DNA of 64,000 nucleotides. Origin: a virus. Shown here one piece after another: positions 1,590 through 14,482 of the stretch (the first letter of the stretch is position 1; every line of letters starts with the position of its first letter). The notes under the pieces were generated by a model. It was not told the origin of the DNA. It searched no databases and saw only the letters and a list, made by a program, of their open reading frames with translations. The stretch lies in the IMG/VR virus record IMGVR_UViG_3300045988_174813, one strand, 5' to 3'. Position numbers and translations under genes: made by a program.

Positions 1590-1833
1590 TTCTTGCGCCC
1601 AAAATTTGACAGGCCTATCCAATGTTCTCCCTATGTGGTGCGCGCATCATAAAATTTGACACGCAACAAAATTTGCGTTGGTGGTTTACGATAATAATGT
1701 TATGTAAACTTTAGTTGTGTGATGAATTAGTGATTTAGTGTGTTAGTAGTTTACTATGCTAAAGAAAATTTGACAAAAATGAAAATCTAACCTAAGATAG
1801 GTTAGATTTTGGGGTAAAAGAAAAGAGGGAAAA

Positions 1834-2016
1834 TTAGATTTCCCCCTCAATAGAATAATTTTCGTATTTATAATGTAAATCAATCTGGTATTCTTTTTCA
1901 CACTGCGGGCAATAATAGATACAACATTCTGTATGATAATCATCACCATATAAATCATCATACGTATCATCAAGAGCAAGAACCGCACCACAATTCGGGC
2001 ATCTAATCTCTTCCAT
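1834..2016 (-). CDS. small zinc-ribbon protein, 60 aa
   Basis: CPNC...CPQC pairs; last gene of a three-gene unit; start abuts the stop of the upstream gene (TAAATG). Confidence 0.65.
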   Translation of the reverse strand: MEEIRCPNCGAVLALDDTYDDLYGDDYHTECCIYYCPQCEKEYQIDLHYKYENYSIEGEI

Positions 2017-2178
2017 TTATTCTTCATCCTCCAAACAAGAATCATTATTTTCACCAGTAGGAAAATAGAAACTTCCTTTCCAGAGAGGACAATTATTAAT
2101 ACATTCCCCTTTAAGGCAATCATTTACGTTGCATCTCTCTATAAAGAAAATAATTTCCTCATTACTTAGATTTTTCAT
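2017..2178 (-). CDS. hypothetical Cys-rich protein, 53 aa (below the track cutoff)
   Basis: Hand translation MKNLSNEEIIFFIERCNVNDCLKGECINNCPLWKG...; exactly fills the gap between neighbours 2016 and 2179. Confidence 0.5.
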   Translation of the reverse strand: MKNLSNEEIIFFIERCNVNDCLKGECINNCPLWKGSFYFPTGENNDSCLEDEE

Positions 2179-2298
2179 TTACTCTTCCTCCTCATACTCA
2201 CACGGTGGAATATCTCCCGCGCACTTTGCTTCAAACTTACAAGTTGGATAACTTTCGTCCTCTTCGCACCAGCAATATGGACAATCCTTGCAACTCAT
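2179..2298 (-). CDS. hypothetical Cys-rich acidic peptide, 39 aa
   Basis: AGGAGG lies 7 nt before the internal ATG (MSCKDCPYCWCEED...). The track ORF 2179-2367 starts inside the promoter. Confidence 0.5.
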   Translation of the reverse strand: MSCKDCPYCWCEEDESYPTCKFEAKCAGDIPPCEYEEEE

Positions 2299-2438
2299 AC
2301 ACTTACCTCCTTTAGATGATACAATTATATCGCGCCCGCGCCATAAAGTCAAGAAAAACATTTCCATAACCTAACCTATCTTAGGTTAGAAATGCACCAA
2401 AAACTTTCCCTCGCTAAAGTATTAGCAAGGGAAAATTT

Positions 2439-3296
2439 TCAAATATCGGCGCGTCCTACGATGCGGAACGGGAAAGCAATAATTCCGTAGGAAAATTTTC
2501 CTTTCGTGCGCTTGTGGATAAGGGAAAAAATTTCGGTTTCTATCTCGGCATCATTCAATGCCGTGTGCGCTTCTTCAAAATCAGTTTCCCCAGTGATAAA
2601 CCGGAAAGACGTTTCCGCGCTTGTCTTGTAGTATTTCCCACTTTCGGTAATCCAACCGTTAGCTTTGCACGCTTCGCGGTAATCGTCGCTATCAAGAATA
2701 TGCTCACAAGCCAAACCCCAGAGGTCAAACAGAGGATACGACCGACCACGGAAACGGAACACTTCCGGCTCATATTCTTTCTTGGAGGTATAGCGCGTCT
2801 TGCTTGCAATGTTGTCGCAGATGCGGTTCTGGAGGGCTTCCCAGTTGTGGAAGTCTGCGCTATACAGTTTGGAAATATAAAGCTCGGTAAACGGGATTGC
2901 TTTCTTGAAGTCAAAGTTGGCGTTATAAGCTCCGACGCCTACCACGTCGGCGAGGTCTGCTTCAAGTTTTGCGGACGCTTCGCGCCACGTTGCAAGCTCA
3001 ATCGTTCCCGCTTCCAGAGCTTCAAGGTAAATCGGACGCTTAGACGCATAGTAAGCAGTATTGAAAATCGCAGGAACGGAGAAAATCTCGGTAATGAGAT
3101 AGTTACGGCGGCGATAAACGTTACCCTTGGCGTCGCAAATCGTCCAGCCCAAATCATAAATAAGCGGCTTTGCGATAGCTACGGATTTTTTCGCTTCCGC
3201 GGACAGCTCCGACGCATAGGGAAGCGTTGCGGTTTCGCAATCGAGGACGCAATAGTATTTGCGGCGGCGGTCAAGTTTCTTCTCGGCAATAGACAT
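2439..3296 (-). CDS. DEDDh 3'-5' exonuclease (DnaQ-like), 285 aa
   Basis: Exo I VLDCET, Exo II YNANFDF, Exo III HTALNDAEIE. SD AAGGAG before the ATG at 3296; the track start at 3380 is a TTG inside the -35 box. Confidence 0.8.
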   Translation of the reverse strand: MSIAEKKLDRRRKYYCVLDCETATLPYASELSAEAKKSVAIAKPLIYDLGWTICDAKGNVYRRRNYLITEIFSVPAIFNTAYYASKRPIYLEALEAGTIELATWREASAKLEADLADVVGVGAYNANFDFKKAIPFTELYISKLYSADFHNWEALQNRICDNIASKTRYTSKKEYEPEVFRFRGRSYPLFDLWGLACEHILDSDDYREACKANGWITESGKYYKTSAETSFRFITGETDFEEAHTALNDAEIETEIFSLIHKRTKGKFSYGIIAFPFRIVGRADI

Positions 3297-3441
3297 AATA
3301 TATACTCCTTTTCTGTCGGGGCGTAACTTCTTTTCCCTCCTGACATTATATATATTACCACACCCTATACAGGAAGTCAAGAAAAATGTGTCCGGCTTCT
3401 AACCTATCTTAGGTTAGAAAAATTCCAAAAAAAGCAGGGAA

Positions 3442-3813
3442 TTACTCCCCTGCTTTTTCTTCCTCTGCCTTTTCCGCCTTGGCTTTTTCCTTTTCGGCTT
3501 TCTTCCGTTCCCGCTCGGCTTCTTTGCGCTTCCGTTCGGCTTCCTTGGCTTCGGCTTTCTCCGCCTTGTCTGCGAGCTTGGCGCGATACTCGTTAGCGAG
3601 CGCGTAACCGTCCGTGCCGTCCTCTTCGTCGGCTTTCTTCGGGATAATCACCGACAGCTTCACCCACCTATCCTCCCCAGCTTCGACAGTCGGGAACATA
3701 AGCGTTCCGGAAGCGGTCTGCATGACCTCTTCGCCGTCCTCCGTGAGAACTTCCACCAGACGCGCAAGCATGCGCGCACGCAGAGCATCATTCACATTTA
3801 CTTTCTTTTCCAT
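3442..3813 (-). CDS. hypothetical protein with K/E-rich C-terminal tail, 123 aa
   Basis: Intact ORF, AGGAGG SD, own promoter and palindrome; tail is KAEKAEAKEAERKRKEAERERKKAEKEKAKAEKAEEEK. Confidence 0.7.
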   Translation of the reverse strand: MEKKVNVNDALRARMLARLVEVLTEDGEEVMQTASGTLMFPTVEAGEDRWVKLSVIIPKKADEEDGTDGYALANEYRAKLADKAEKAEAKEAERKRKEAERERKKAEKEKAKAEKAEEEKAGE

Positions 3814-3928
3814 TTGGGATACCTCCTTTATCTTTGTGAGTATATGATACTATATATTGAGGGAAAAGTCAAGAAAAACTTTCGGTAGTTCTAACCTATG
3901 TTAGGTTAGATATAGATGGCTCGCGCCA

Positions 3929-4147
3929 TCAATGAATAGTGAGTTCTACATCGAGTTTTTCGACAAAATCAGAGTTCTCAAAAGAAGCGAAACTACCATC
4001 CGCAATATTTACTGTATTGCACAAAATATTTTTTGACATGCAAAATTTCGTCCGCATATAGAGTTCGCCTTCCCAAGAAAAAACTTCTCCAACTTTGACG
4101 AGTTCAAATACCATATTGCTCTTTCTTCTCGTATCATTGACCTGCAT
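3929..4147 (-). CDS. paralog family 1 member, 72 aa
   Basis: MQVNDTRR..GEVFSWEGELYMR..LCNTVNIADG..VEKLDVELTIH; close paralog of 5125-5343; own promoter, SD and palindrome. Confidence 0.75.
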   Translation of the reverse strand: MQVNDTRRKSNMVFELVKVGEVFSWEGELYMRTKFCMSKNILCNTVNIADGSFASFENSDFVEKLDVELTIH

Positions 4148-4176
4148 TATACGTTCCTCCTTTATTTTGTAATCTT

Positions 4177-4205
4177 ATTATATCAAATCTCTTTAGTTGT
4201 GTCAA
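4177..4205 (-). promoter_or_regulatory. representative early promoter (TTGACA-17-TATAAT) 6 nt downstream of palindrome 4212-4232
   Basis: Minus strand: TTGACA 4200-4205, TATAAT 4177-4182, AGGAGG about 4157-4162, ATG 4147. The same layout precedes nearly every early gene. Confidence 0.75.
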
Positions 4206-4243
4206 TTGTAGTCTAACCTATATTAGGTTAGAATAGTTGGGTG

Positions 4244-4462
4244 TCAGAATGACACCCGTGCGGGAATGGGAATAACTTCCGTATCGACATTGTAAGAGTG
4301 AAAAACGCCGTCGGAAAGAGAAACTGCATTGAGGTAGCAATCTTCTTTTTCGTCGAAGACAACTTCGGTTTTCATAAGCAGACGCTTATCCGCATTGTTT
4401 GCAAGAAGAAAGCATTCACCTTTAGACAATTCCCCAAAAGAATTACTAGTTTCAATAATCAT
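4244..4462 (-). CDS. paralog family 1 member (divergent), 72 aa
   Basis: ..GECFLLAN..LLMKT..NAVSLSDG.. matches the family pattern; own promoter, SD and palindrome. Confidence 0.7.
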   Translation of the reverse strand: MIIETSNSFGELSKGECFLLANNADKRLLMKTEVVFDEKEDCYLNAVSLSDGVFHSYNVDTEVIPIPARVSF

Positions 4463-4569
4463 ATTATTTCCTCCTTTTCTTTATGGTCGTATTATACTAT
4501 ATTATACGCGCATTGTCAACTAATCTCTAACCTATATTAGGTTAGAAGCCTCCAAAAAATTGTCTACCC

Positions 4570-5007
4570 TCAACCGAGGGCAGACAAAATTTCCATAATC
4601 TGCGACGGGTCAAAACTGTATTCTCCCCAGTTTTCGCGGTTCTTCTCTTCATCATCGAAAAGAATATCTTCCGCGCCGAGCTTGAAAGTTTCTTTCGGTG
4701 TGCCATACTCTACGACGTGGATAGCGTCCCACTTGACAGAGTGGAGATGCTTGTCAAGCCATTTCTTTTTGGCTTCGCGCACGGCTTCAAGATAGGCTTT
4801 CGAGCTTGTCTTGCTTCCCCACGAGATAACGCCGATAGTGTAGCCTGCGCGGTGGAGCTTGTTGAGCTTGCGCGCGAGCGTGCGCATATCACCGAGCGGT
4901 CGCGCCTGGGCATAGGGTCTTGGATTTTCTGCGCGAAGCATAGAAAGCCAATTTTCCACGGCGTAAAGGTCTGAAATTGTGCCGTCCATATCGAACCAAA
5001 TCGTCAT
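4570..5007 (-). CDS. HAD-superfamily phosphatase (5'(3')-deoxyribonucleotidase-like), 145 aa
   Basis: N-terminal FDMDGT (DxDxT) motif; size and later D-rich motif (FDDEE) fit small HAD nucleotidases. Confidence 0.7.
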   Translation of the reverse strand: MTIWFDMDGTISDLYAVENWLSMLRAENPRPYAQARPLGDMRTLARKLNKLHRAGYTIGVISWGSKTSSKAYLEAVREAKKKWLDKHLHSVKWDAIHVVEYGTPKETFKLGAEDILFDDEEKNRENWGEYSFDPSQIMEILSALG

Positions 5008-5124
5008 TTCGTTGTGTCCTCCTTTATCTTTGTGAGTATATGATACTACATAATGAGTAAAAAGTCAAGAAAAAATTGTGTGGTTTCTAACCTATATTAG
5101 GTTAGATTATGATGGCTTATGCCA

Positions 5125-5343
5125 TCAATGAATAATGAGTTCTGTATCGAGTTTTTCAACAAGCTCGGAATTTGCAAAGTAAACCAACATGCCATCCGCA
5201 ATATCGACTGTATTACACAAAGTATCACCAACTTTGCAAGGTCGTATCCTCATCCAAAGTTTACCCTCCCAACAAAAAACTTCTCCTTTTTTGATTGCTT
5301 CAAAAAAAACGTGTTCTTTCATTCTCGTATCTTTGACTTGCAT
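5125..5343 (-). CDS. paralog family 1 member, 72 aa
   Basis: MQVKDTRM..GEVFCWEGKLWMR..LCNTVDIADG..VEKLDTELIIH. Confidence 0.75.
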   Translation of the reverse strand: MQVKDTRMKEHVFFEAIKKGEVFCWEGKLWMRIRPCKVGDTLCNTVDIADGMLVYFANSELVEKLDTELIIH

Positions 5344-5466
5344 TATAGTTTCCTCCTTTATTTTGTAATTGTATTATACTCCACTATGCACTCCTTGTCA
5401 ACTATCCTCTAACCTATTTTAGGTTAGAAACCCTCCAAAAAAGAGAGGGGAGAAAACTCCCCTCAC

Positions 5467-5832
5467 TTACTCCGCGTCCACGTCCGCGGGATGGGCAACG
5501 TAACACTTCTGCGCGCCCTTGCCCTTGACCTTGACATCCTCCACGTCAAGCTCACCGAGCGCGACAAGCTGACGGAGCAGGGCGGACGCCTTAGGTGTGG
5601 ACAGCTCAAGCTCCACAGCGACCTCGGAGGCGAGACGCTTCTTGTTGTCGTCCATCAGATTGCGGATGGCGTCGAGGATGGGCGCGTTTTCGGCGAGCTT
5701 CTTGGAGTTGACGCGAGCCGAAGCCTTTTCGCGCTCTTTGGTAAGCTGGTCAAGCATAGCCTGCGCCTTTTCGTTCATTTCGTCGGAGAGGTTCGCGCTA
5801 ATCACGTTCGCAAAAAATTCCTTATTGGTCAT
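5467..5832 (-). CDS. hypothetical protein with C-terminal winged-helix-like domain, 121 aa
   Basis: GC-rich ORF. ..LASEVAVELELSTPKASALLRQLVALGELD.. resembles MarR-type wHTH. Separate terminator at 5445-5464 plus T-run. Confidence 0.65.
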   Translation of the reverse strand: MTNKEFFANVISANLSDEMNEKAQAMLDQLTKEREKASARVNSKKLAENAPILDAIRNLMDDNKKRLASEVAVELELSTPKASALLRQLVALGELDVEDVKVKGKGAQKCYVAHPADVDAE

Positions 5833-5991
5833 GATGTATTCCTTTCTGGTTTTTCGGTCTTGTCCTTGACCTTGAATTTTAGGGGATTTTGTATCCCCCT
5901 TACGAGTATTATATTACCACATACTCTAAAAAATTGCAAGCAAAATTTTTTGGGTTCTAACCTATTTTAGGTTAGAATGGAAGTGGAGGAA

Positions 5992-6267
5992 TTATTCCTC
6001 CACTTCATCATTTGCGAGCCGAACCTCATAGGGCCCATACACGTCATCATCTTCTGCTTTTTCGTGTGCCCAATCTTCAAATTGCAGGCGCGCCTCTTCG
6101 CGGTCTGCGTCGGTAAACTCAAAGATTTCATCAATGTAATAGTTTTCTTCAAGAAAAACATTGAAGTTATCTTTTGTTTTCCAATCGTCCACAAGACCAT
6201 TGAAGTATTCTTCGTGCGCGCGGTCGGACATCATGTCATTGTCGAAAGAACTATACCATACTGTCAT
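5992..6267 (-). CDS. highly acidic small protein (paralog family 2), 91 aa
   Basis: AGGAGG before the ATG at 6267 (MTVWYSSF...); about one third D/E; shares the EEYF..W..ENY..EIF pattern with 7900-8151. Confidence 0.7.
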   Translation of the reverse strand: MTVWYSSFDNDMMSDRAHEEYFNGLVDDWKTKDNFNVFLEENYYIDEIFEFTDADREEARLQFEDWAHEKAEDDDVYGPYEVRLANDEVEE

Positions 6268-6366
6268 TTGGGTATCCTCCTTTGTCTTTGTGAGTATACT
6301 ATACCACACTTTGCGCGGAGTGTCAATTCTCTTCTAACCTATATTAGGTTAGATGCCCAATTGGAA

Positions 6367-6765
6367 TTATTTTCCAATCGGGCAGACAGTAAGTCCGCGT
6401 TCTTTGAGATACTGAATTGCAATAGTGGCATCGTAATAATCAAAAATTTCTTTGAGACTTGCTTCATATGGGATATAATTGTATTCCACTACAAGGGTAT
6501 GCGGTTTTTTATCAAGAGAACTCCACATAAAAGGTTTACTTTCCACTTCCAGCCCATAAAATTCTTTTTTGAAAAGTTTCTTCCATGTCCATGTGAAGAC
6601 GCCTGCGTTTGCTGGAAGAGAATCAATAGCTTCTTTGAGATTAGTGAATGTCCAGGTTTTTGTGCTGATGTCGGCTTCATCTGCAAGAACAAAGCCATGT
6701 GTGCGGGACTGCATTTCTTCTCCATCAAAGAGAACGCGCACCTTGAGACGATAAGACTTAATCAT
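6367..6765 (-). CDS. hypothetical protein, 132 aa
   Basis: SD AAAGGGGA before the ATG at 6765 (MIKSYRLKV...). The longer track ORF starts inside the promoter. Confidence 0.65.
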   Translation of the reverse strand: MIKSYRLKVRVLFDGEEMQSRTHGFVLADEADISTKTWTFTNLKEAIDSLPANAGVFTWTWKKLFKKEFYGLEVESKPFMWSSLDKKPHTLVVEYNYIPYEASLKEIFDYYDATIAIQYLKERGLTVCPIGK

Positions 6766-6871
6766 TGGTTTATCCCCTTTCTTTTGATGATACAAATATA
6801 CCATATTTGCACTATAAAGTCAATCCCTATCTAACCTAATATAGGTTAGAAAAATAAGGGGCATAAGTCCC

Positions 6872-7189
6872 TTACTTCATAATTGCATAATTTTTTGCAT
6901 ACCAGAATTTTTCTGGAATTTCCATAACCGTGATAAGCACGATACCCTCTTCAACCTTGCCATAGATAAATACATAATTTTTATACACTTTGAAAAACTG
7001 ATTGTTCCCGCGGAATTTTTCAGCCGTATATCTCAAGTAGCTTTCAAACGGCGTTCCCTCGTAGCGTTCAAACTCTACTCCGCGCGCGTAGGCTTGGCGC
7101 GCGATTTTAGATATAGAAATATTGTAGGTGAGATTTTTGCGCTCGCGCCATCTTTTGAAAGCGTGGTCTGAAATGATAATGGTTTCCAT
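6872..7189 (-). CDS. hypothetical protein, 105 aa (weak resemblance to DUF4258-type small toxins)
   Basis: The N-terminal ISDHAFKRWRER motif is reminiscent of the H-A-x-x-R-x-x-E-R signature. Resemblance only, not verified. Confidence 0.55.
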   Translation of the reverse strand: METIIISDHAFKRWRERKNLTYNISISKIARQAYARGVEFERYEGTPFESYLRYTAEKFRGNNQFFKVYKNYVFIYGKVEEGIVLITVMEIPEKFWYAKNYAIMK

Positions 7190-7298
7190 AATTTTGGGAT
7201 ACCTCCTTTTCTTTATGGTCTTATTATACCATATGGAAAGAAAAAGTCAACACCCCTCTAACCTATGTTAGGTTAGAAATGCGCGCGGTCTCCGCGCG

Positions 7299-7514
7299 TT
7301 AGTGGATGACAAGGTCAGCATCGACGAACCGAACGACTTCATCTCCCATGAAGCAAGTAATTGTACCATCCTCAAGACAAATTGCGTTATATATATGACC
7401 ATTAGAGACGGTCTCTCTGAACCTCATAAAAATGCTATTGTTATATTCAAAAATTCCGCCTACGTCTACGTCGTCAAAAAAATGATTCTCATTTTCTTTT
7501 CTAATAATATTCAT
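7299..7514 (-). CDS. paralog family 1 member, 71 aa
   Basis: AGGAGG before the ATG at 7514 (MNIIRKEN..GGIFEYNNSIFMR..NAICLEDG..DADLVIH). Confidence 0.7.
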   Translation of the reverse strand: MNIIRKENENHFFDDVDVGGIFEYNNSIFMRFRETVSNGHIYNAICLEDGTITCFMGDEVVRFVDADLVIH

Positions 7515-7621
7515 AACTTGTTCCTCCTTTATTTTGTAATTATAATATACCATAAAAAATTCCAACTGTCAATACCACTCTAACCTAATATAGGTTAGAA
7601 TTTATGCTGGCTCGCGCCAGC

Positions 7622-7798
7622 TTAGTAGATAGAATATTCAGCTTCCAGGCGCCAGCTCTCACTCTCGCGCAGTTCCATTTCTACGAGCGTTGGCATCTGA
7701 CCAATGAGTGCCATGAGTTGCTTTCCGATGTCTATCGTAGTGATGTAGGGCAAACGTTGCGCGGGCATATCTTTGAACCATGCGGTAAGTGTATACAT
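7622..7798 (-). CDS. hypothetical protein, 58 aa (below the track cutoff)
   Basis: GGGAGG SD 7 nt before ATG; MYTLTAWFKDMPAQRLPYITTIDIGKQLMAL...; replaces plus-strand track ORF 7604-7873, which has no signals. Confidence 0.55.
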   Translation of the reverse strand: MYTLTAWFKDMPAQRLPYITTIDIGKQLMALIGQMPTLVEMELRESESWRLEAEYSIY

Positions 7799-7899
7799 TT
7801 GGAATACCTCCCTTTACTTTGTACTGTAAGTATACTATATCTATACGAAAAAGTCAACCCACTTCTAACCTAAGATAGGTTAGAAAAAAAAGAGGAAGA

Positions 7900-8151
7900 T
7901 TACTCTTCCTCTTCCATGGGTTCATAGTCCATGTCCTCAATAGCCTCTTCCCGCACAGCGTCATAAAACTCTTCGTAAACGTTCTGCCGTTCCATCTCGC
8001 ACATAGAGAAAATCTCGTGAGCGTTATAGTTTTCATCAATCCAGCGCTCAAAGAAATACTCATCCAGTTGCGCCTCCATCTCTTCCTCTACCAGCTCGTC
8101 AAAACGCTCCTCGTCAATAACCTCACCAGTGATAGCATGCTTGTACATCAT
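7900..8151 (-). CDS. highly acidic small protein (paralog family 2), 83 aa
   Basis: 31 of 83 residues are D/E by hand count; DEYFFERWIDENYNAHEIF matches 5992-6267. Confidence 0.7.
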   Translation of the reverse strand: MMYKHAITGEVIDEERFDELVEEEMEAQLDEYFFERWIDENYNAHEIFSMCEMERQNVYEEFYDAVREEAIEDMDYEPMEEEE

Positions 8152-8315
8152 AGTAAAATACCTCTTTTCAAATATTTGAGACGTTCGGTTTGTTTCCTCT
8201 ATCTCTTTACATTATGAATTATACTATATATCGTCCCGAATGTCAACTCATTTCTAACCTATAATAGGTTAGAATATATCCTGCGCAGAAACTAAAAGTG
8301 CCCCTATTGGGGCAC

Positions 8316-8519
8316 TTATTTGAGCACCTTACACTCACGAATCTCAAAAGGCTTGACCCCATTATTATCCGACAATGATTTCCACCACCGTTCAGGGGTG
8401 AGCCATTTCTGCTGGTTCTCTGTGGCAAAACAATCATATAGCGTGTTGATTGCGTCTTTCTTGTTGTTGGCAACTGCGAAAAACGGATGTCCACTTGTTG
8501 TTCTAAAAACTGCTACCAT
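8316..8519 (-). CDS. hypothetical protein, 67 aa
   Basis: SD AAGGAGAAG before the ATG at 8519 (MVAVFRTTSGHPFF...). Confidence 0.6.
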   Translation of the reverse strand: MVAVFRTTSGHPFFAVANNKKDAINTLYDCFATENQQKWLTPERWWKSLSDNNGVKPFEIRECKVLK

Positions 8520-8641
8520 ATCTTTCTTCTCCTTTTGGTTATTTCTTTTATCTTTGTGATTATAATATACCATACTTTTAGAAAGAAGTCAACTAACTTC
8601 TAACCTATATTAGGTTAGAAAAGGATTGATGGCTCGCGCCA

Positions 8642-8863
8642 TCAAATCCGAACCGTGATGTCAGCCCTCACCGGCATGACAATGGTACCGGAGTCATACA
8701 CCGTCATCTCACAGGTGTCAAAATCAAATGCATTGCGTCTCCAGCCGTCACTGGTGTAGGTGTCTGCCAGTTTGAGGCACGGCTTGCCGCAACAAAGAAA
8801 AGTGTCGCCAACTTTCAGTTCACTAAATTCGACGGTTTTACGGTACTGATAAAAGATGTTCAT
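8642..8863 (-). CDS. paralog family 1 member (divergent), 73 aa
   Basis: MNIFYQYRK..VGDTFLCCGKPCLKL..; same length class and G-[DE]-x-F core; stop sits in a GATGGC-N4-GCCATC hairpin as in 3929 and 5125. Confidence 0.6.
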   Translation of the reverse strand: MNIFYQYRKTVEFSELKVGDTFLCCGKPCLKLADTYTSDGWRRNAFDFDTCEMTVYDSGTIVMPVRADITVRI

Positions 8864-8971
8864 TGGTATATCCCCTTTCAAGTTTGTATACACATTATAA
8901 CGCATATGCGCCCGTTTGTCAACCGGTTTCTAACCTATTTTAGGTTAGAAGTCCCCCTTGCGGGGGAACGC

Positions 8972-9157
8972 TTACCGCATATCCTGTCCCATATAGATAA
9001 ATTCCACACGCTTACCGACAAGATTGTGCTCCTGTCTGAACTTTTTCTTAGCGGTAGTCATAGAATACCCATAATAGACAGTATGCGCGCCGTCATAGCA
9101 AAAAGTAAGAGACGCGTTGCGCGGATTGGAACTGATGAACACGGTAGACATAGACAT
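8972..9157 (-). CDS. hypothetical protein, 61 aa
   Basis: AGGAGG SD, own promoter and palindrome. Confidence 0.6.
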   Translation of the reverse strand: MSMSTVFISSNPRNASLTFCYDGAHTVYYGYSMTTAKKKFRQEHNLVGKRVEFIYMGQDMR

Positions 9158-9302
9158 GGTAGAAACCTCCTTGTTTTTATACTTGAATTATACTATATGA
9201 TTATGGGATAGTCAAGAAAAAAATTCCCATATCTAACCTATATTAGGTTAGAAAAAATTGCAAAAAAAATTCCATACCATTATGGGATACAAAAAATTGC
9301 AA

Positions 9303-9358
9303 GAAAAAATTCCATTGCGCGGGCACCATAAAATTACTACAAAGTATGGTGTCCGCGC
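9303..9358 (-). terminator. hairpin terminator after CDS 9373-9540
   Basis: 14-bp stem GCGCGGGCACCATA / TATGGTGTCCGCGC (one mismatch) followed on the minus strand by a T-run. Confidence 0.55.
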
Positions 9359-9372
9359 CGTGTATGTATGTC

Positions 9373-9540
9373 TCAATATCTTACTTCTGTATAAAGATGT
9401 GCTACGCCAGAAATCAGAGAATACACACCTACTAACTCTTGAATTATAAACCGCGCCATAGAAATATTGCCCATATCAATCGCGCCAACACTACCAAAAA
9501 TAAGTGCAATCCCAACAATGATTTTTATCCATTTACTCAT
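9373..9540 (-). CDS. small membrane protein, 55 aa, two predicted TM segments
   Basis: SD AAGGAGAG before the ATG at 9540; MSKWIKIIVGIALIFGSVGAI...LVGVYSLISGVAHLY. Confidence 0.6.
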   Translation of the reverse strand: MSKWIKIIVGIALIFGSVGAIDMGNISMARFIIQELVGVYSLISGVAHLYTEVRY

Positions 9541-9644
9541 TAGAATACTCTCCTTTCGTTTTCTACTTATAGTATATATTATGGAAACCAAATTGTCAAT
9601 ACAGAATTATGTGAACCGCGCGAAACTCTAACCTATATTAGGTT

Positions 9645-9693
9645 AGAAAATATAGTGAAAAGAAACTTCACTACGGTAAAGTAGTGAAGTTTC
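9645..9693 (-). terminator. canonical rho-independent terminator after CDS 9700-9864, immediately followed by palindrome 9627-9647
   Basis: 13-bp stem GAAACTTCACTAC/GTAGTGAAGTTTC (9662-9693), then TTTTCACTATATTTTC on the minus strand. Confidence 0.75.
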
Positions 9694-9699
9694 CTCTAC

Positions 9700-9864
9700 T
9701 TAGTACGTATCGTACCCCATCATTTCCGCCGTGTAATCATCATCAATGGAAATAAATTCCGGGTCGTCAAAATAGAAATAAGCGATTTGGTCGGCGCTGT
9801 CGATGCTGTTGGCGACCACATAGAAATATTCTCCGGTCTGATTGTCATAATACAAATAATTCAT
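9700..9864 (-). CDS. hypothetical acidic protein, 54 aa (below the track cutoff)
   Basis: Hand translation MNYLYYDNQTGEYFYVVANSIDSADQIAYFYFDDPEF...; SD AAGGGGAAA; bracketed by a promoter and a terminator. Confidence 0.55.
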   Translation of the reverse strand: MNYLYYDNQTGEYFYVVANSIDSADQIAYFYFDDPEFISIDDDYTAEMMGYDTY

Positions 9865-10036
9865 AGTAGTTTCCCCTTGTATTTAGTTTGTGGACAAGGA
9901 ATAGGGGTCGGATGGCGGTATCACATAACGCTCTCCATCGGGTCTTTTTCCCTGTCCACATTATGAATTATACCACATTATATGGAAAAGTCAAATGGTT
10001 TCTAACCTATTTTAGGTTAGAATTATGGGATAGGAA

Positions 10037-10066
10037 AAACTTTTCCACACTAAAGTGGAAAAGTTT
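10037..10066 (-). terminator. hairpin terminator after CDS 10077-10247, followed by palindrome 10001-10021
   Basis: 12-bp stem AAACTTTTCCAC/GTGGAAAAGTTT, T-rich 3' side on the minus strand. Confidence 0.5.
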
Positions 10067-10076
10067 CCCCAAAAAA

Positions 10077-10247
10077 TTACTGGTCAATGGTGTATTCGAT
10101 TTTCCCCGTCTTGTCATTTTTCACGACAACCACGCCCGCGCCCGGAAAAGTGGCATAATTTTCGGCAAGATTTTTTGCGGTTTTGAGGGTTGCCACGCCA
10201 GAATGAAATACGGTGCGAGATTTGAAATTGATTTCGATAGTGTACAT
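10077..10247 (-). CDS. hypothetical protein, 56 aa (below the track cutoff)
   Basis: GGAGGT SD 7 nt before ATG; MYTIEINFKSRTVFHSGVATLKTAKNLAENYATFPGAGVVVVKND... Confidence 0.55.
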   Translation of the reverse strand: MYTIEINFKSRTVFHSGVATLKTAKNLAENYATFPGAGVVVVKNDKTGKIEYTIDQ

Positions 10248-10438
10248 TGTATGTACCTCCTTGATTTATTGTACCTATATGATACTATATATATACTATA
10301 TTGTCAATACCCTATCGGGATATTTCTAACCTATGTTAGGTTAGAAAAAAATTTGAGCGGGACAAAATTTCCAGCCTGTAGCTTTCATACTTTAGTGTAT
10401 GAAAGTACGGGCTCTCGCGCGGGTGCGCGAAAAAATTT

Positions 10439-10475
10439 CCAGCTCAGCTCCAGCTTCAGCTTTCAGCTCAGCTCC
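10439..10475. repeat. CAGCT short repeat patch (6 copies)
   Basis: CCAGCTCAGCTCCAGCTTCAGCTTTCAGCTCAGCTCC; related to 1531-1589. Confidence 0.7.
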
Positions 10476-10568
10476 CCTGTGAGTGGTAGGTGATGGGTGG
10501 GTTATGGGTGCATAATATATATACTATGGGCGCGCTTTGCACCTTGACGCCAAATTTCTACTTTATCC

Positions 10569-10614
10569 TGCTAAATCGTTATACTTTCGCGTGCTAAATC
10601 GCTACACTTTCACG
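10569..10614. repeat. tandem 23-bp direct repeat x2
   Basis: TGCTAAATCGTTATACTTTCGCG / TGCTAAATCGCTACACTTTCACG (20 of 23 identical). Confidence 0.8.
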
Positions 10615-10662
10615 ATGTAAAGTGCGACAGTTTATTACACTAAAGTATTATTCCATACTACA

Positions 10663-10691
10663 ATTATAACACATAATGCATAGATATGCAA
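10663..10691 (-). promoter_or_regulatory. early-type promoter (TTGCAT-17-TATAAT) 17 nt downstream of palindrome 10709-10729
   Basis: Minus strand: TTGCAT 10686-10691, TATAAT 10663-10668. Confidence 0.55.
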
Positions 10692-10912
10692 GAAAAATTT
10701 CCCCCGTTTCTAACCTATATTAGGTTAGAGAATATTTATGCATTTTGGGCGCGAATAATGCATAAACATTCAAAAAATCATAGGTTAGAAACGATTTTTT
10801 GCATAAATATTCATGCATAATATTCATGCATATTCATTCATTATGTATGGATATTTATGCAAAGTTGATTATAGGATGTATACTTTCATGCTTTAGTGTA
10901 CTAAAGTGACAG

Positions 10913-11555: not shown

Positions 11556-11813
11556 TTACGGCCTGTCGTATTTCGGGGATACACTGACAACCAATTCCCC
11601 GTCACCAATGCCAAAATCAAAGATACTGTAATCACGATCAAGCGCGTTGATATCGCGCACGGTAACGCCGTAATCGTCAACTAATTTACCGTCAACGACA
11701 TAGCCCGTAAGCGCAACGCGAAACGGCCTATAGTGGTAAACTTTTAAGCGCATAGGTTTACCGAAATTGTAACGCATGATAAAATCATTAAGCTCCATTT
11801 TTACACACTCCAT
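11556..11813 (-). CDS. hypothetical protein, 85 aa (alternative start at 11798)
   Basis: Intact ORF. GGAG lies 9 nt before the second ATG (MELNDF...), so 11798 may be the true start. Confidence 0.6.
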   Translation of the reverse strand: MECVKMELNDFIMRYNFGKPMRLKVYHYRPFRVALTGYVVDGKLVDDYGVTVRDINALDRDYSIFDFGIGDGELVVSVSPKYDRP

Positions 11814-11859
11814 TCTTATTTATGCGGCGCGGGAATGTATCCCGCGCCGCTTTTGCTTG

Positions 11860-12438
11860 TTAATCAATCAGTGCATAGGACAAAAGCACGGCTTTTTCGT
11901 CAGTGCTCCACGTCTTGCTGATATCAATTTTGCCTTGCGGCGTAGCGCGGTTTTTCCATCTACTATGCGGCGTTAAAATAGCTTTAATAGCCAATTCAAA
12001 AGCAACGCCGTCATAACCGCAATAACCACTATCCGGTTTTTCAACTTTTTCAAGTTGCTTGTTGAAAAGCTCTATGAATTCCGTTTCACTGATAATGTAT
12101 CCCATTTCAGCGAGAACGTCAAAGAGCTTGTCATGTTCCGACACCCAATTACGGATACGCATTTCAGATTTATTTCCCGCGGCGGCGCGATAGGTGACGC
12201 CGTTCTCACAGCTCCACTTGAACACGCGGAAACGATAGGTTTTCTTGTCCGTATCAAAACGGATAAGCTCCGCGCCGTAGCCGCCGGTAAGCATATCCCG
12301 CACACTCTCTTTGTGCATGAGAATGGCGTTCCGGTACAGCTCCGCGGGAGTGTAGCCAAACGACAATACCGTAAGCGCCGGGTTGTTGCGTTCGTTTTCC
12401 GTGAAGTTGCTAATATTTGTTTTAATCTCAAGTTTCAT
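11860..12438 (-). CDS. hypothetical protein, 192 aa, first gene of the leftward early unit
   Basis: Intact GC-rich ORF, GGAG SD, GC-rich hairpin 11824-11850 downstream; no family recognised. Confidence 0.7.
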   Translation of the reverse strand: MKLEIKTNISNFTENERNNPALTVLSFGYTPAELYRNAILMHKESVRDMLTGGYGAELIRFDTDKKTYRFRVFKWSCENGVTYRAAAGNKSEMRIRNWVSEHDKLFDVLAEMGYIISETEFIELFNKQLEKVEKPDSGYCGYDGVAFELAIKAILTPHSRWKNRATPQGKIDISKTWSTDEKAVLLSYALID

Positions 12439-12640
12439 TGTTTTAGCTCCATTCTTTAATATGATAAAGTACAGCTTAGCGTTTTGGCGGTTATTGCCAC
12501 GCTACAACATCCCCGCACCGTTGCGAAAAGGGTATAGTAACCCCTTTGCCGGCGCTCCGTCCTTGCGCGATTTACGCAAACGCATATTTACTTGACAAAG
12601 AACACCCGCCGCCGGAACTCTCGTTCCCTTGACTGTGCCC

Positions 12641-12669
12641 ATATTAACATATGCTCTAACCTATGTCAA
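12641..12669 (-). promoter_or_regulatory. leftward promoter (TTGACA-17-TAATAT) with a TCTAACCTA half site in its spacer
   Basis: Minus strand: TTGACA 12664-12669, TAATAT 12641-12646; about 195-nt GC-rich leader to the ATG at 12438. Confidence 0.5.
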
Positions 12670-12724
12670 GCACTTTTTTCGATTTTTAAAAACTTTTTTT
12701 CGCCGTGCTTATGGCGTTCTAAGC

Positions 12725-12734
12725 GGGGGGGGGG
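12725..12734. repeat. G10 homopolymer tract
   Basis: Ten consecutive G in the divergent intergenic region. Confidence 0.9.
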
Positions 12735-12744
12735 CATATCCCGC

Positions 12745-12772
12745 GCCCTTGCCCTTGCCCTTGCCCTTGCCC
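12745..12772. repeat. hexamer tandem repeat (GCCCTT) x4.5
   Basis: GCCCTTGCCCTTGCCCTTGCCCTTGCCC. Confidence 0.9.
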
Positions 12773-12847
12773 GTGACGGGGGAAGGTTTTCCGGCAGGCG
12801 GGCACACACGAATCGTGTACCCCGCCTACCTGGTACATTCTCTTCAC

Positions 12848-12931
12848 AAACCTAAAATTCCAAACCTAAAATTCCAAACCTAAAATTCCAAACCTAAAAT
12901 TCCAAACCTAAAATTCCAAACCTAAAATTTG
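12848..12931. repeat. 14-bp tandem repeat AAACCTAAAATTCC x6 (last unit degenerate)
   Basis: Five perfect units plus AAACCTAAAATTTG; the last unit overlaps the -35 of the rightward promoter. Confidence 0.95.
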
Positions 12932-12958
12932 AAATTCCTCACCCACCTGTGGTATAAT
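12929..12958 (+). promoter_or_regulatory. rightward promoter of the recoded operon (TTGAAA-18-TGgTATAAT)
   Basis: TTGAAA 12929-12934, TGG 12950-12952, TATAAT 12953-12958. Confidence 0.6.
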
Positions 12959-13023
12959 ATAAGTATGGGGCAGGAATACGCTTCTTCCCCAACCACATAC
13001 AATGGAGGTGAATTACCAAATAG

Positions 13024-14316
13024 ATGTCGGACACAAAACAAAAACGCAATCCAGCGAAGTATGTTCCGCCCTACACTCTGGATTTCTCGCTAAACGATGC
13101 AACCGCACGTTAGAAACTTGTAGATAATGTGCTGAGCGCAATGGAACGCTCTGGACGCAAGCCCAACCAAAAAGACCTAGACTTACTATCTAACTATATT
13201 TTGTGCGGAGAAGATCCCGATGGCTACAACCCAGTACGCTCCAAAGACATAGAACTTGTCGGCTACTCCACTCCCGCACGGCCAAAAGAGTAGTCCCTGG
13301 AAGCCCTAGTGGAAAGTCCCACTTTTTCGGAGTCTCTCTTTCGCCAAGGCCCAACACGTTACACCATCCCAAAACCCAATCTGGAGCGCGCATCCTTCGA
13401 TCCATCCCTAAGTGTTGCGCCTGTCCCCCAAAACGATGGGGCCCGCGCTACACAATCAAACCAACAATCCGATTCTTCTCCTGCCTTGGAGTGTATGAGA
13501 GCTCTTTGGAAGCGTATTGACCGCCTAGATGATGCACTTACTAACCAAGGTCTAACCTCCCAACAAACCTACCACCTACGCAAACTTCTCCTCGAACTTC
13601 GTCGAGAACAATACACCATTGGCGACTTCATAAAACCCCAAATACAACTCCATTCAGTTGTGTAGGATAAATATCGAGGGGGAGAAGAAACCCAAGGACT
13701 TCTTTGGGATACGGACGCATTTCCCATACTTCCTATGGGCCTGTATAATGCGCGTCATCCTTAGACTAAATTCTCTAAACCATATACTATAAACTTACCT
13801 GATGAGCCTTTGCGCGAGCCAAAGAACAATTGCTTCTTGGACTTCCGTAATTGGAAGCACATTTACTGGATGAATGAGTTTAGAGAAGATTTGGAAGATT
13901 GGAGTGTGGGTGATGCGGAAAGCGCGATCCCCGCCTTATACGCCACGTTGGACTTTTACACTAATCTTGCCCATTTGCGCCCCGCGCAAAAACTTATATT
14001 CCAACTAAAATCCCAAAATTACACCAACGAGTTCATTTGTAGGGTACTACACGAAAAGTTGGGGGTAGACTACAGTGAACCCTACATTTCCACTATATAT
14101 ACCAAGCAAATTTGTAAAGGAATAGCCAATGCCGCGCAACTCCATTGGGATACTTTTTGCGCGCGTAAGAACCCCAAAAGCTTCAAACAGTGTAAGGATT
14201 GTGGAGCAGTGCTACTTATGGATGGGCGCAATTTTGCCCAGTCTTCCCGTAATGCGGGGGGATGGAATTGCAGGTGTAAGTGGTGTGAGAGATAGAAACG
14301 TAAGGCCCAGTAGTAA
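13024..14316 (+). CDS. first gene of the rightward operon, 430 aa with 6 in-frame TAG; HTH-like segment plus C-terminal zinc ribbon (regulator or DNA-recognition subunit?)
   Basis: Joins track ORFs 13309-13665 and 13810-14295 (same frame, separated only by TAG) and ends in TAA. ..LRPAQKLIFQLKSQNYTNEFICRVLHEKLGVDYSEPYISTIY.. resembles sigma region 4 / HTH. CKDC...CRCKWC. The SD is far (15 nt) from the ATG. Confidence 0.55.
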
Positions 14317-14482
14317 TTGGGCATTTTATACAATAATCTATATAAAAGATGGATAAATTTTTGGACTGCGCGCACAGACAATTGCGTAGTCTTGGAGGAA
14401 CACATTGCGTTATAGTAAGATAAAGAAATAGATTGGAGTTGAAGTAAGCTCCGAAGAACTACTTCACTTTGTGGAGTAGAGT

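Follow-up and report, generated by a model that had tools for sequence, protein, structure and literature searches.

The interval at positions 12439-13023 (585 bp) of the 64,000-nucleotide stretch of viral DNA analysed here (the 64-kb window) is a divergent transcription-control region, with the early standard-code genes of a phage on one side and its late recoded genes on the other. It is a repeat-bearing promoter region of a known sort, here present in a recoded phage. Its anatomy and the fast change in copy number of its repeats are solid; the layout of the region, its conservation, the copy-number polymorphism and the recoding can all be read directly from the DNA. From these we infer function, including the UP-like role and the tuning effect proposed for the repeat units. 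The best overall explanation, for which the chances are judged about even, is that in this divergent control region of a TAG-recoded phage the units closest to the rightward promoter are UP-like, and that additional copies tune this promoter or barely affect it.

Under this explanation, two back-to-back promoters of the host sigma-A type, both having extended -10 elements, would fire apart from each other, the leftward one heading early standard-code genes and the rightward one heading the recoded block of ~27 kb. The DNA between them combines a small set of deeply conserved cis-elements (the G5 motif and dyad, the box TACATTCTCYYCACRAA and the A4T2 unit) with a GC-rich spacer of simple repeats and an array of A4T2 units. 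The two units proximal to the rightward promoter may help RNA polymerase to dock, as AAAAT-TTGA may do at other promoters. The array probably arose by tandem duplication of a promoter-proximal module, the additional units being putative recent duplications. Each extra unit would shift the upstream box and the dyad a further 14 bp away and, because the displacement occurs in such steps, extra units would at most tune late-promoter strength gradually, with no on/off effect.

Phage, relatives and coding regimes

The source is a gut Firmicutes phage of the human gut with a genome of ~130 kb and ~38% GC, in which TAG is translated as an amino acid. Reading through TAG raises the summed length of open reading frames of at least 150 aa in the window from 13,248 aa to 24,709 aa. 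It also yields a compact run of large plus-strand genes with packaging and structural functions at 13024-39769 (~27 kb). From 13024 the order is a sigma-like gene, two shorter reading frames, the large terminase and the portal, and the same operon also encodes a YonG_N-like protein. The interval is the gap between this TAG-recoded block and a leftward standard-code gene, and so marks the boundary of two coding regimes. An earlier sequence-only reading had described a divergent early/late control region, which is borne out by the leftward standard-code genes facing a rightward packaging and structural block. That this block is TAG-recoded turned out additionally.

The nearest terminases are those of Firmicute phages and of phAss-1, a 'code 15 clade' phage from the human gut whose predicted hosts are Clostridia (PMC10607447). 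Promoters and repeats go unmentioned in the phAss-1 genome paper (PMC10607447). About 20 related upstream regions were collected for comparison, all from contigs of human-gut metagenomes, up to ~130 kb long and cited by L numbers (L001 and so on). Two long contigs, of 129,661 and 130,191 bp, carry the locus internally and at differing offsets, which rules out a fixed genome end. A blastn search of 11800-14400 against GenBank phages gave no match, and the sigma-like gene is without relatives in the bacterial genome collection. Among cultured relatives, Geobacillus E3 and Enterococcus EF1 were considered and set aside, as their homologous genes are not arranged divergently and tell nothing about the array.

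Searches for other kinds of element in and around the interval were negative. An Rfam search of 11800-13600 (E <= 1) gave three weak sub-threshold hits near 11800-11907 and left the interval empty. A scan of the whole 64-kb window for tRNA and tmRNA genes found none, so no suppressor tRNA is encoded in the window. Short open reading frames within the interval (e.g. 12592-12855) were rejected because they cross variable repeats that are absent or of other length in relatives.

The first gene served by the leftward promoter (11860-12438, minus strand, 192 aa, standard code) has no PHROG or Pfam hit, and an exact look-up of its protein in the window returned no identical record. Three allelic types, with 27-44% identity between them, can be told apart among its homologues in the relatives, a divergence which suggests frequent module exchange at this position.

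Divergent promoters and their leaders

The rightward sigma-A-type promoter (12929-12958, plus strand) consists of TTGAAA, an 18-bp spacer and the extended -10 TGg TATAAT. A consensus scan recovers it with 11/12 consensus positions plus the TG, in the place where the sequence-only reading had put it, and it is kept in relatives. The hexamers, the TG and the 18-bp spacer are identical in every close relative. In the distant L012-L014, whose adjacent protein is 27-34% identical, the -35 is TTGACT or TTGACA, the spacer 17-18 bp and the -10 TGnTATAAT or TGGTATACT. Promoter geometry is preserved in all 21 of the 21 related upstream regions. Within the window this is the only strong intergenic plus-strand candidate heading 13024-39769, and its -10 region motif is unique there.

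Consensus geometry predicts a rightward transcription start at ~12965. A 5'-terminal stem-loop is predicted 1-3 nt past this putative start (12966-12991, plus strand), with an RNA fold of -11.5 kcal/mol and z = -3.2. Leaders were assessed by single-sequence RNA folds; among 17 of them the stem-loop has a z of about -3 or lower in nine and is weaker in six, and it is not predicted in the leaders of L013 and L014. It lies at the same place in most relatives, with 3' arms of differing sequence, and this retention lends indirect support to the putative start, since transcripts are expected to begin 6-8 nt past a -10. Further downstream, the ribosome-binding site GGAGGTGA (13004-13011, plus strand) is located 12 nt before the ATG at 13024 and is identical in all close relatives.

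The first recoded gene (13024-14316, plus strand) encodes a sigma-like protein of 430 aa with a C-terminal helix-turn-helix region and a zinc ribbon. Its reading frame contains TAG at residues 30, 90, 214, 247, 424, and 430. Since four of these six codons precede the invariant C-terminal cysteines of the zinc ribbon (C390-C421), read-through is required. The protein matches phrog_5767, annotated 'sigma factor', at 1.6e-11, and 21/21 homologues match the same PHROG. Pfam detects no sigma domain in it, its predicted structure (mean pLDDT 62) has no PDB match at E <= 0.001, and a profile search of PDB sequences gives marginal hits only. With neither a Pfam sigma domain nor a PDB structure match, the name 'sigma factor' is owed to the PHROG label alone.

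The leftward sigma-A-type promoter (12669-12641, minus strand) has TTGACA at 12669-12664, a 17-bp spacer and TGt TAATAT at 12646-12641. It agrees with consensus at 10/12 positions and carries the extended -10 TG in the same type of scan. Both promoters thus have a TG one base before the -10 and a hexamer spacing within the 16-18 bp typical of sigma-70/sigma-A extended -10 promoters. The leftward promoter was also recovered in L007, L015, L023, L024, L006, and L018, and all seven contigs that yielded the promoter have a 17-bp spacer. The sequence-only reading had located this promoter at 12641-12669 with a palindrome half site in its spacer, and both were found there.

The half site, TAGGTTAGA (12655-12663, minus strand), is one half of a 21-bp palindrome that occurs 22 times at 1786-10729, in the early region. 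In a bacterial genome collection the palindrome is represented by six single sites, estimated to be about the chance number. Relatives carry the half site in the same spacer in either orientation, as TAGGTTAGA in L023 and L024 and as TCTAACC in L015 and L017 (by eye in the latter). One group of relatives keeps the leftward promoter, its upstream A-tracts and the spacer half site together. The A-tracts belong to an UP-like region, AAAAAAAGTTTTTAAAAATCGAAAAAAGTG (12671-12700, minus strand), which lies upstream of the leftward -35 and is kept in group A relatives. On the other side, a transcription start predicted from the position of the -10 would give a 5' leader of ~195 nt (12439-12634, minus strand). 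This predicted leader contains the hairpin AAAGGGGTTACTATACCCTTTT and folds as RNA at -63.9 kcal/mol (z = -2.1).

Divergent early and late promoters are familiar from the Bacillus phage phi29, in which they are A2b, A2c, and A3 and the late promoter has no -35 and needs the protein p4, an activator that binds inverted repeats. The region described here resembles phi29 in that it belongs to a Firmicute phage, its divergent promoters are within a few hundred bp and the DNA between them is bent and rich in A-tracts. Unlike phi29, it has a good -35 (TTGAAA) together with an extended -10, and its repeats are direct and variable in number. The rightward promoter is therefore not of the phi29 type, in which late transcription depends on an activator; being near-consensus, it should be active without one.

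A published idea holds that the TAG codons of recoded gut phages serve to delay late-gene translation and hence expression, and a rightward promoter able to work free of an activator would fit this idea. A late promoter resembling a strong host promoter would shift the burden of timing to translation or to upstream elements. To our knowledge the transcriptional control of recoded gut phages has not been described, and the region offers a concrete, conserved candidate late promoter for one recoded lineage.

The 14-bp array and its possible roles

The array of 14-bp A4T2 units (12847/12848-12929/12931, plus strand) is variable in number and is reported by TRF as 5.9 copies with 100% matches and a score of 166. 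It is made up of five perfect copies of AAACCTAAAATTCC and a sixth unit, AAACCTAAAATTTG, the TTG of which is the start of the rightward -35. An earlier suggestion that the last unit supplies the -35 is confirmed for the start of this hexamer. In the window the unit has 7 matches with up to two mismatches against 1.24 expected, and 0/100 shuffles reach 7. A link between the 14-mer and the early palindrome through a shared AACCTAAAAT was considered and treated as coincidence, because most relatives have AAACCCAAAAT yet the same palindrome.

The unit is conserved in its form, CRAAnnAAAATTYC, even in relatives at 27-34% protein identity, and is also conserved in its position. An A-tract/T junction falls at -1 from the first base of the -35 in 18/18 contigs scored, and a second at -15 or -16 in 16/18. 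The two -35-proximal units are kept in almost all close relatives, and L001 holds just these two. They place A-tracts at about -38/-41 and -52/-55, in keeping with the A/T-rich subsites of an UP element at about -46 to -38 and -57 to -47. UP elements and phased A-tracts are well known upstream of strong promoters, as at rrnB P1 and Bacillus phage promoters. The likeness extends to the remainder of this genome, where AAAAT abuts many -35s. In the window, (A)AAAT directly precedes TTGA at seven or more further candidate promoters, some of them in the replication block. As the AAAAT-TTGA junction is present at so many non-late promoters, the proximal unit looks generic and not late-specific. Classical UP elements differ in that they are not tandem 14-bp arrays, do not reach -110 and are not copy-number polymorphic. 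The 14-bp period is also out of helical phase, so distal units are unlikely to be simple alpha-CTD sites.

A different proposal, which follows the sequence-only reading, is that the 14-bp units are tandem sites for a dedicated regulator, bound cooperatively and touching RNA polymerase at the -35. Such a regulator, of phage or host origin, could be a late activator, an anti-repressor, or the sigma-like product of the first gene acting on its own promoter. The overlap of the last unit with the -35 would suit this arrangement, as would the helix-turn-helix protein encoded directly downstream and the conservation of CRAAnnAAAATTYC and the adjoining box down to 27-34% protein identity. One unit is inverted in L010 and L023-L025, producing CCAAAAT-AA-ATTTTGG, as half sites can be. 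The unit also has conserved non-A/T positions (CC..AAAATTCC) which, together with this inversion, would fit a protein half site as well. However, unit spacing varies (13, 14, 15, 19, and 20 bp), copy number is unconstrained from 2 to about 8, and no candidate protein was linked to the site. A near-consensus extended -10 promoter should not need an activator, and this phage also has the AAAAT-TTGA junction at promoters that are not late. A dedicated regulator is accordingly rated as rather unlikely. The unconstrained spacing and box distance, together with the common junction, appear to suit a generic UP-like role better than a late factor.

Two further roles for the repeats, in replication and in packaging, also have to be weighed. 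Like a dedicated activator, both are weaker alternatives than the UP-like reading. Tandem direct repeats in non-coding DNA at the cumulative GC skew minimum might be iterons of a replication origin; in the lactococcal phage c2 the origin lies where early and late genes diverge. The locus does not have the make-up of an iteron-type origin, however, and this role is extremely improbable. No initiator gene adjoins the array, DnaA boxes are not enriched anywhere in the window and are absent from the region, and the switch of coding strand accounts for the skew minimum. L001 has only two copies, and no DNA in the window has a higher GC content than that next to the array. A much better iteron-like array, AT-rich and built of 22-bp repeats, is present at 1090-1390.

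Repeats directly upstream of an operon with a YonG_N-like protein, large terminase and portal could instead be a pac site for the terminase small subunit, placed before the packaging operon as in some Bacillus phages. In SPP1 and P1, for example, the pac site combines short repeated boxes with bent DNA. The internal and differing positions of the locus in the two ~130-kb contigs provide no fixed end, and genomes neither begin nor end at the site as they would at a cos site or other fixed terminus. Copy number is again unconstrained, and the proximal unit runs into a promoter feature that unrelated promoters also have. A pac site is judged very improbable.

Conserved upstream elements and repeat turnover

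Upstream of the 14-bp array, 12701-12830 is the most GC-rich 130-nt stretch in the 64-kb window (67.7%). The G10 and (GCCCTT) tracts and the six 14-bp units listed in the sequence-only reading are all present, either at the positions given for them or no more than a few bases away. The G10 homopolymer (12725-12734, plus strand) is private to the window genome; the 21 related upstream regions contain no G or C run of 8 or longer and have interrupted runs instead, such as G4CG5. The hexamer array (12745-12772, plus strand) is (GCCCTT)x4.7 with 100% matches by TRF and is variable in number, with 4.7 copies in the window, 3.2 + 6.5 in L015, 6.0 in L017, 5.5 in L023, and 6.5 in L024. At the same place L022 has (GCC)8 and L005 has an array of a 12-mer, (CCCCGCAGGAAG)n. 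The minus strand of the hexamer array carries a canonical G-quadruplex motif (12740-12772) that has no counterpart elsewhere in the 64 kb. It was rejected as a conserved G-quadruplex element, being absent from 13/18 related loci scanned.

Three conserved elements lie between the hexamer array and the 14-bp array. A G5 motif, GACGGGGGAAGGTTTTCCGG (12775-12794, plus strand), is seen by eye in all close relatives with the conserved form GACGGGGGAAGGTTTT; the distant L012 and L014 have a similar CCGGGGG(T)A..TTT..GGG, again by eye. It is followed by a GC-rich hairpin or palindrome (12793-12830) with arms GGCAGGCGGG (12793-12802) and CCCGCCTACC (12821-12830) around the inner palindrome ACACGAATCGTGT (12806-12818). 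As DNA this hairpin folds at -12.3 kcal/mol (z = -3.9), and 0/200 shuffles fold as well. It had been proposed at about 12786-12826; the structure is present, with its span a few bases further right. Relatives have a dyad with either inner ACACGAATCGTGT or GTCCG..CGGAC, and a third group is without the dyad; dyad type shows no association with the left-gene allele among relatives.

The third element is an upstream box, TACATTCTCTTCACAAAC (12834-12851, plus strand; consensus TACATTCTCYYCACRAA). The motif ACATTCTCYYCACRAA occurs once or twice in 19/31 loci, some of which are the same contig again. In every gene-oriented locus the box is on the plus strand upstream of the sigma-like gene, its only position, and it is exact in L012, a relative at 34% identity, against 0.01 expected. 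Six relatives (L002, L006, L007, L010, L011, and L020) have the box duplicated together with the unit at a period of 37-38 bp. The proximal box lies 34-119 bp from the -35 across relatives, and these distances show no helical periodicity. The box was also considered as a repeated phage-specific promoter motif and rejected as such, with only one other weak match in the 64 kb, at chance level. The deep conservation of the box and the G5 motif implies at least one sequence-specific upstream factor, and a pure UP-element model leaves both elements unexplained.

The 14-mer and hexamer arrays are variable-number repeats among about 20 related contigs. Copies of the 14-mer number 1.9 in L001, 2.6 in L024, 2.9 in L026, 3.9 in L015, 4.6 in L023, and 5.9 in the window, with at least 4.9 in L021, where the contig is cut. 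For L015 the protein identity is 98%. Hexamer copies range from 3.2 to 6.5 across genomes. The closest comparison is between L023 and L024, which come from different assemblies and, when aligned over 2.6 kb, show one mismatch and two gaps. These gaps correspond exactly to two 14-mers and one hexamer, with L024 having two fewer of the former and one more of the latter. All copy numbers were taken from short-read assemblies, which may miscount, and several contigs break inside the arrays. Such breaks are compatible with heterogeneity, and also with k-mer limits. Both arrays are variable repeats of the slippage type, with very rapid turnover in evolutionary terms.

This turnover invites the view that the G10 and the arrays, apart from the two proximal units, are neutral by-products of slippage and recombination in a poorly constrained mosaic module junction. 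The expanded units are perfect copies and therefore recent, and unrelated simple repeats (GCCCTT, GCC, and CCCCGCAGGAAG) occupy the same place according to lineage. The G10 is private, G-quadruplex potential is not conserved, and the three divergent left-gene types point to frequent module exchange. Yet the central spacer is ~68% GC in all close relatives against ~38% for the genome, which mutation pressure alone is not expected to maintain, and many lineages have acquired repeats at the same two positions. On balance neutrality is considered unlikely, and the explanation with UP-like proximal units and copies of graded or little effect is preferred.

The sequence-only reading had further raised the idea that slippage in the G10 and hexamer tracts could make the region a phase-variable switch. 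The 14-mer and hexamer arrays do differ in copy number among lineages, even between near-identical genomes; of the two tracts it named as slippage-prone, the hexamer is thus variable and the G10 is confined to the window genome. A switch is not supported. As at contingency loci, copy number differs between very close genomes, but on/off switching at such loci calls for a repeat in a reading frame or between a -35 and a -10. Here every repeat tract lies upstream of the -35 of either promoter and leaves the two spacers untouched; these are invariant at 18 bp on the right (close relatives) and 17 bp on the left (seven contigs), so a change in copy number cannot break the core promoters.

A selected contingency device could still act through strength, with 14- and 6-bp slippage generating subpopulations that differ in the activity of the one promoter behind the entire TAG-recoded late block and its sigma-like first gene; this is judged quite unlikely. 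If true, late-gene dosage could be quickly re-tuned to hosts or to suppressor-tRNA supply, and a mutational rheostat, otherwise a matter of surface-antigen genes in bacteria, would be found in a virus.

In bacteria, repeats close to a promoter are known to tune expression through upstream geometry, and sabA of H. pylori and nadA of N. meningitidis are the nearest mechanistic analogues. The sabA promoter contains a T-tract 'rheostat', a homopolymer upstream of an adhesin gene that has been experimentally tested, and it is proposed to grade promoter strength through alignment of UP-like elements with the core promoter (PMC4081817). The present region is similar in having a slippage-prone repeat directly upstream of the -35, with a length that differs between close relatives. 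In contrast to sabA, its repeat is a 14-bp unit in a phage, ahead of a 27-kb late operon, and is known from sequence alone. In nadA, a TAAA tract is flanked by the repressor NadR and expression is reported to be periodic with copy number (PMC2791445). Here too a tandem repeat upstream of the core promoter alters the spacing of distal regulatory elements, but no phase is favoured among the distances.

Should promoter strength depend on copy number, repeat-based tuning would extend from bacterial contingency genes to phage late operons. Whatever their effect on transcription, the arrays provide a clean natural example of repeats changing between almost identical phage genomes, and could serve as strain markers.

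Mosaicism and length variation at the control region

The 192-aa gene immediately left of the control region (11860-12438, - strand) and its counterparts in the related loci L001-L026 fall into three allelic types with a mutual identity of only 27-44%, whereas the right-hand gene shows 87-98% identity across this set of genomes. Given this difference between its two flanks, the control region is a mosaic junction adjoining a fast-evolving early gene.

The related contigs L018 and L019 are 97.8% identical, yet short homopolymers differ between their upstream regions (T12 vs. T7CT5, G4 vs. G5, and C2 vs. C3), which is one more hint of slippage in the upstream region, or else of sequencing error. 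Additionally, six contigs (L005, L008, L009, L020, L021, and L025) have an end within or beside the repeat arrays. These ends are consistent either with samples in which arrays of several lengths are mixed or with assembly breaks at repeats that exceed the k-mer.

Palindromes and other repeats of the early region

The early region carries 22 copies of a 21-bp perfect palindrome, TCTAACCTAnnnTAGGTTAGA, between 1786 and 10729, at a spacing of one per 300-500 bp. This amounts to 46 observed strand-wise matches where 5.4 are expected, and no enrichment of the palindrome was found in bacterial genomes. All but one of the copies (21/22) are followed on the - strand by a recognisable sigma-A-type promoter, which starts either ~6 nt or ~16-28 nt further on, and many are preceded by terminator-like hairpins. 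This arrangement supplies one cassette for each small early gene. The palindrome arms are identical in close relatives, while the distant relative L012 has TTTAGACGTnnnACGTCTAAA instead.

An AT-rich non-coding stretch at 1090-1390 contains TTTACATAAGG / TTTACATATAC in a dozen copies, some direct and some inverted, set in 22-bp repeats, and is a plausible candidate for the replication origin. Further short tandem repeats, with periods of 10-23 bp, lie at 3446-3546 and 10276-10861 in the early region.

TAG recoding and a probable replication module

Throughout the packaging and structural block (13024-39769, + strand) TAG must be a sense codon, with ORFs of 2353 and 1454 aa among those requiring read-through. 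Read-through is mostly unnecessary for genes on the - strand, although a few ORFs of the replication block on that strand are also longer when TAG is read through. The 64-kb window contains no tRNA genes, and hence no suppressor tRNA.

Judged by eye, the translations from 40113-63870 (- strand) look like a replication module, with resemblances to a DNA polymerase III alpha, an anaerobic ribonucleotide reductase, RecJ, a primase, a DnaB-like helicase, and the A and B subunits of a gyrase or topoisomerase. Strong sigma-A-type promoters that lack the palindrome are located within this stretch at ~47020, 57886, 58339, 60325, and 62757.
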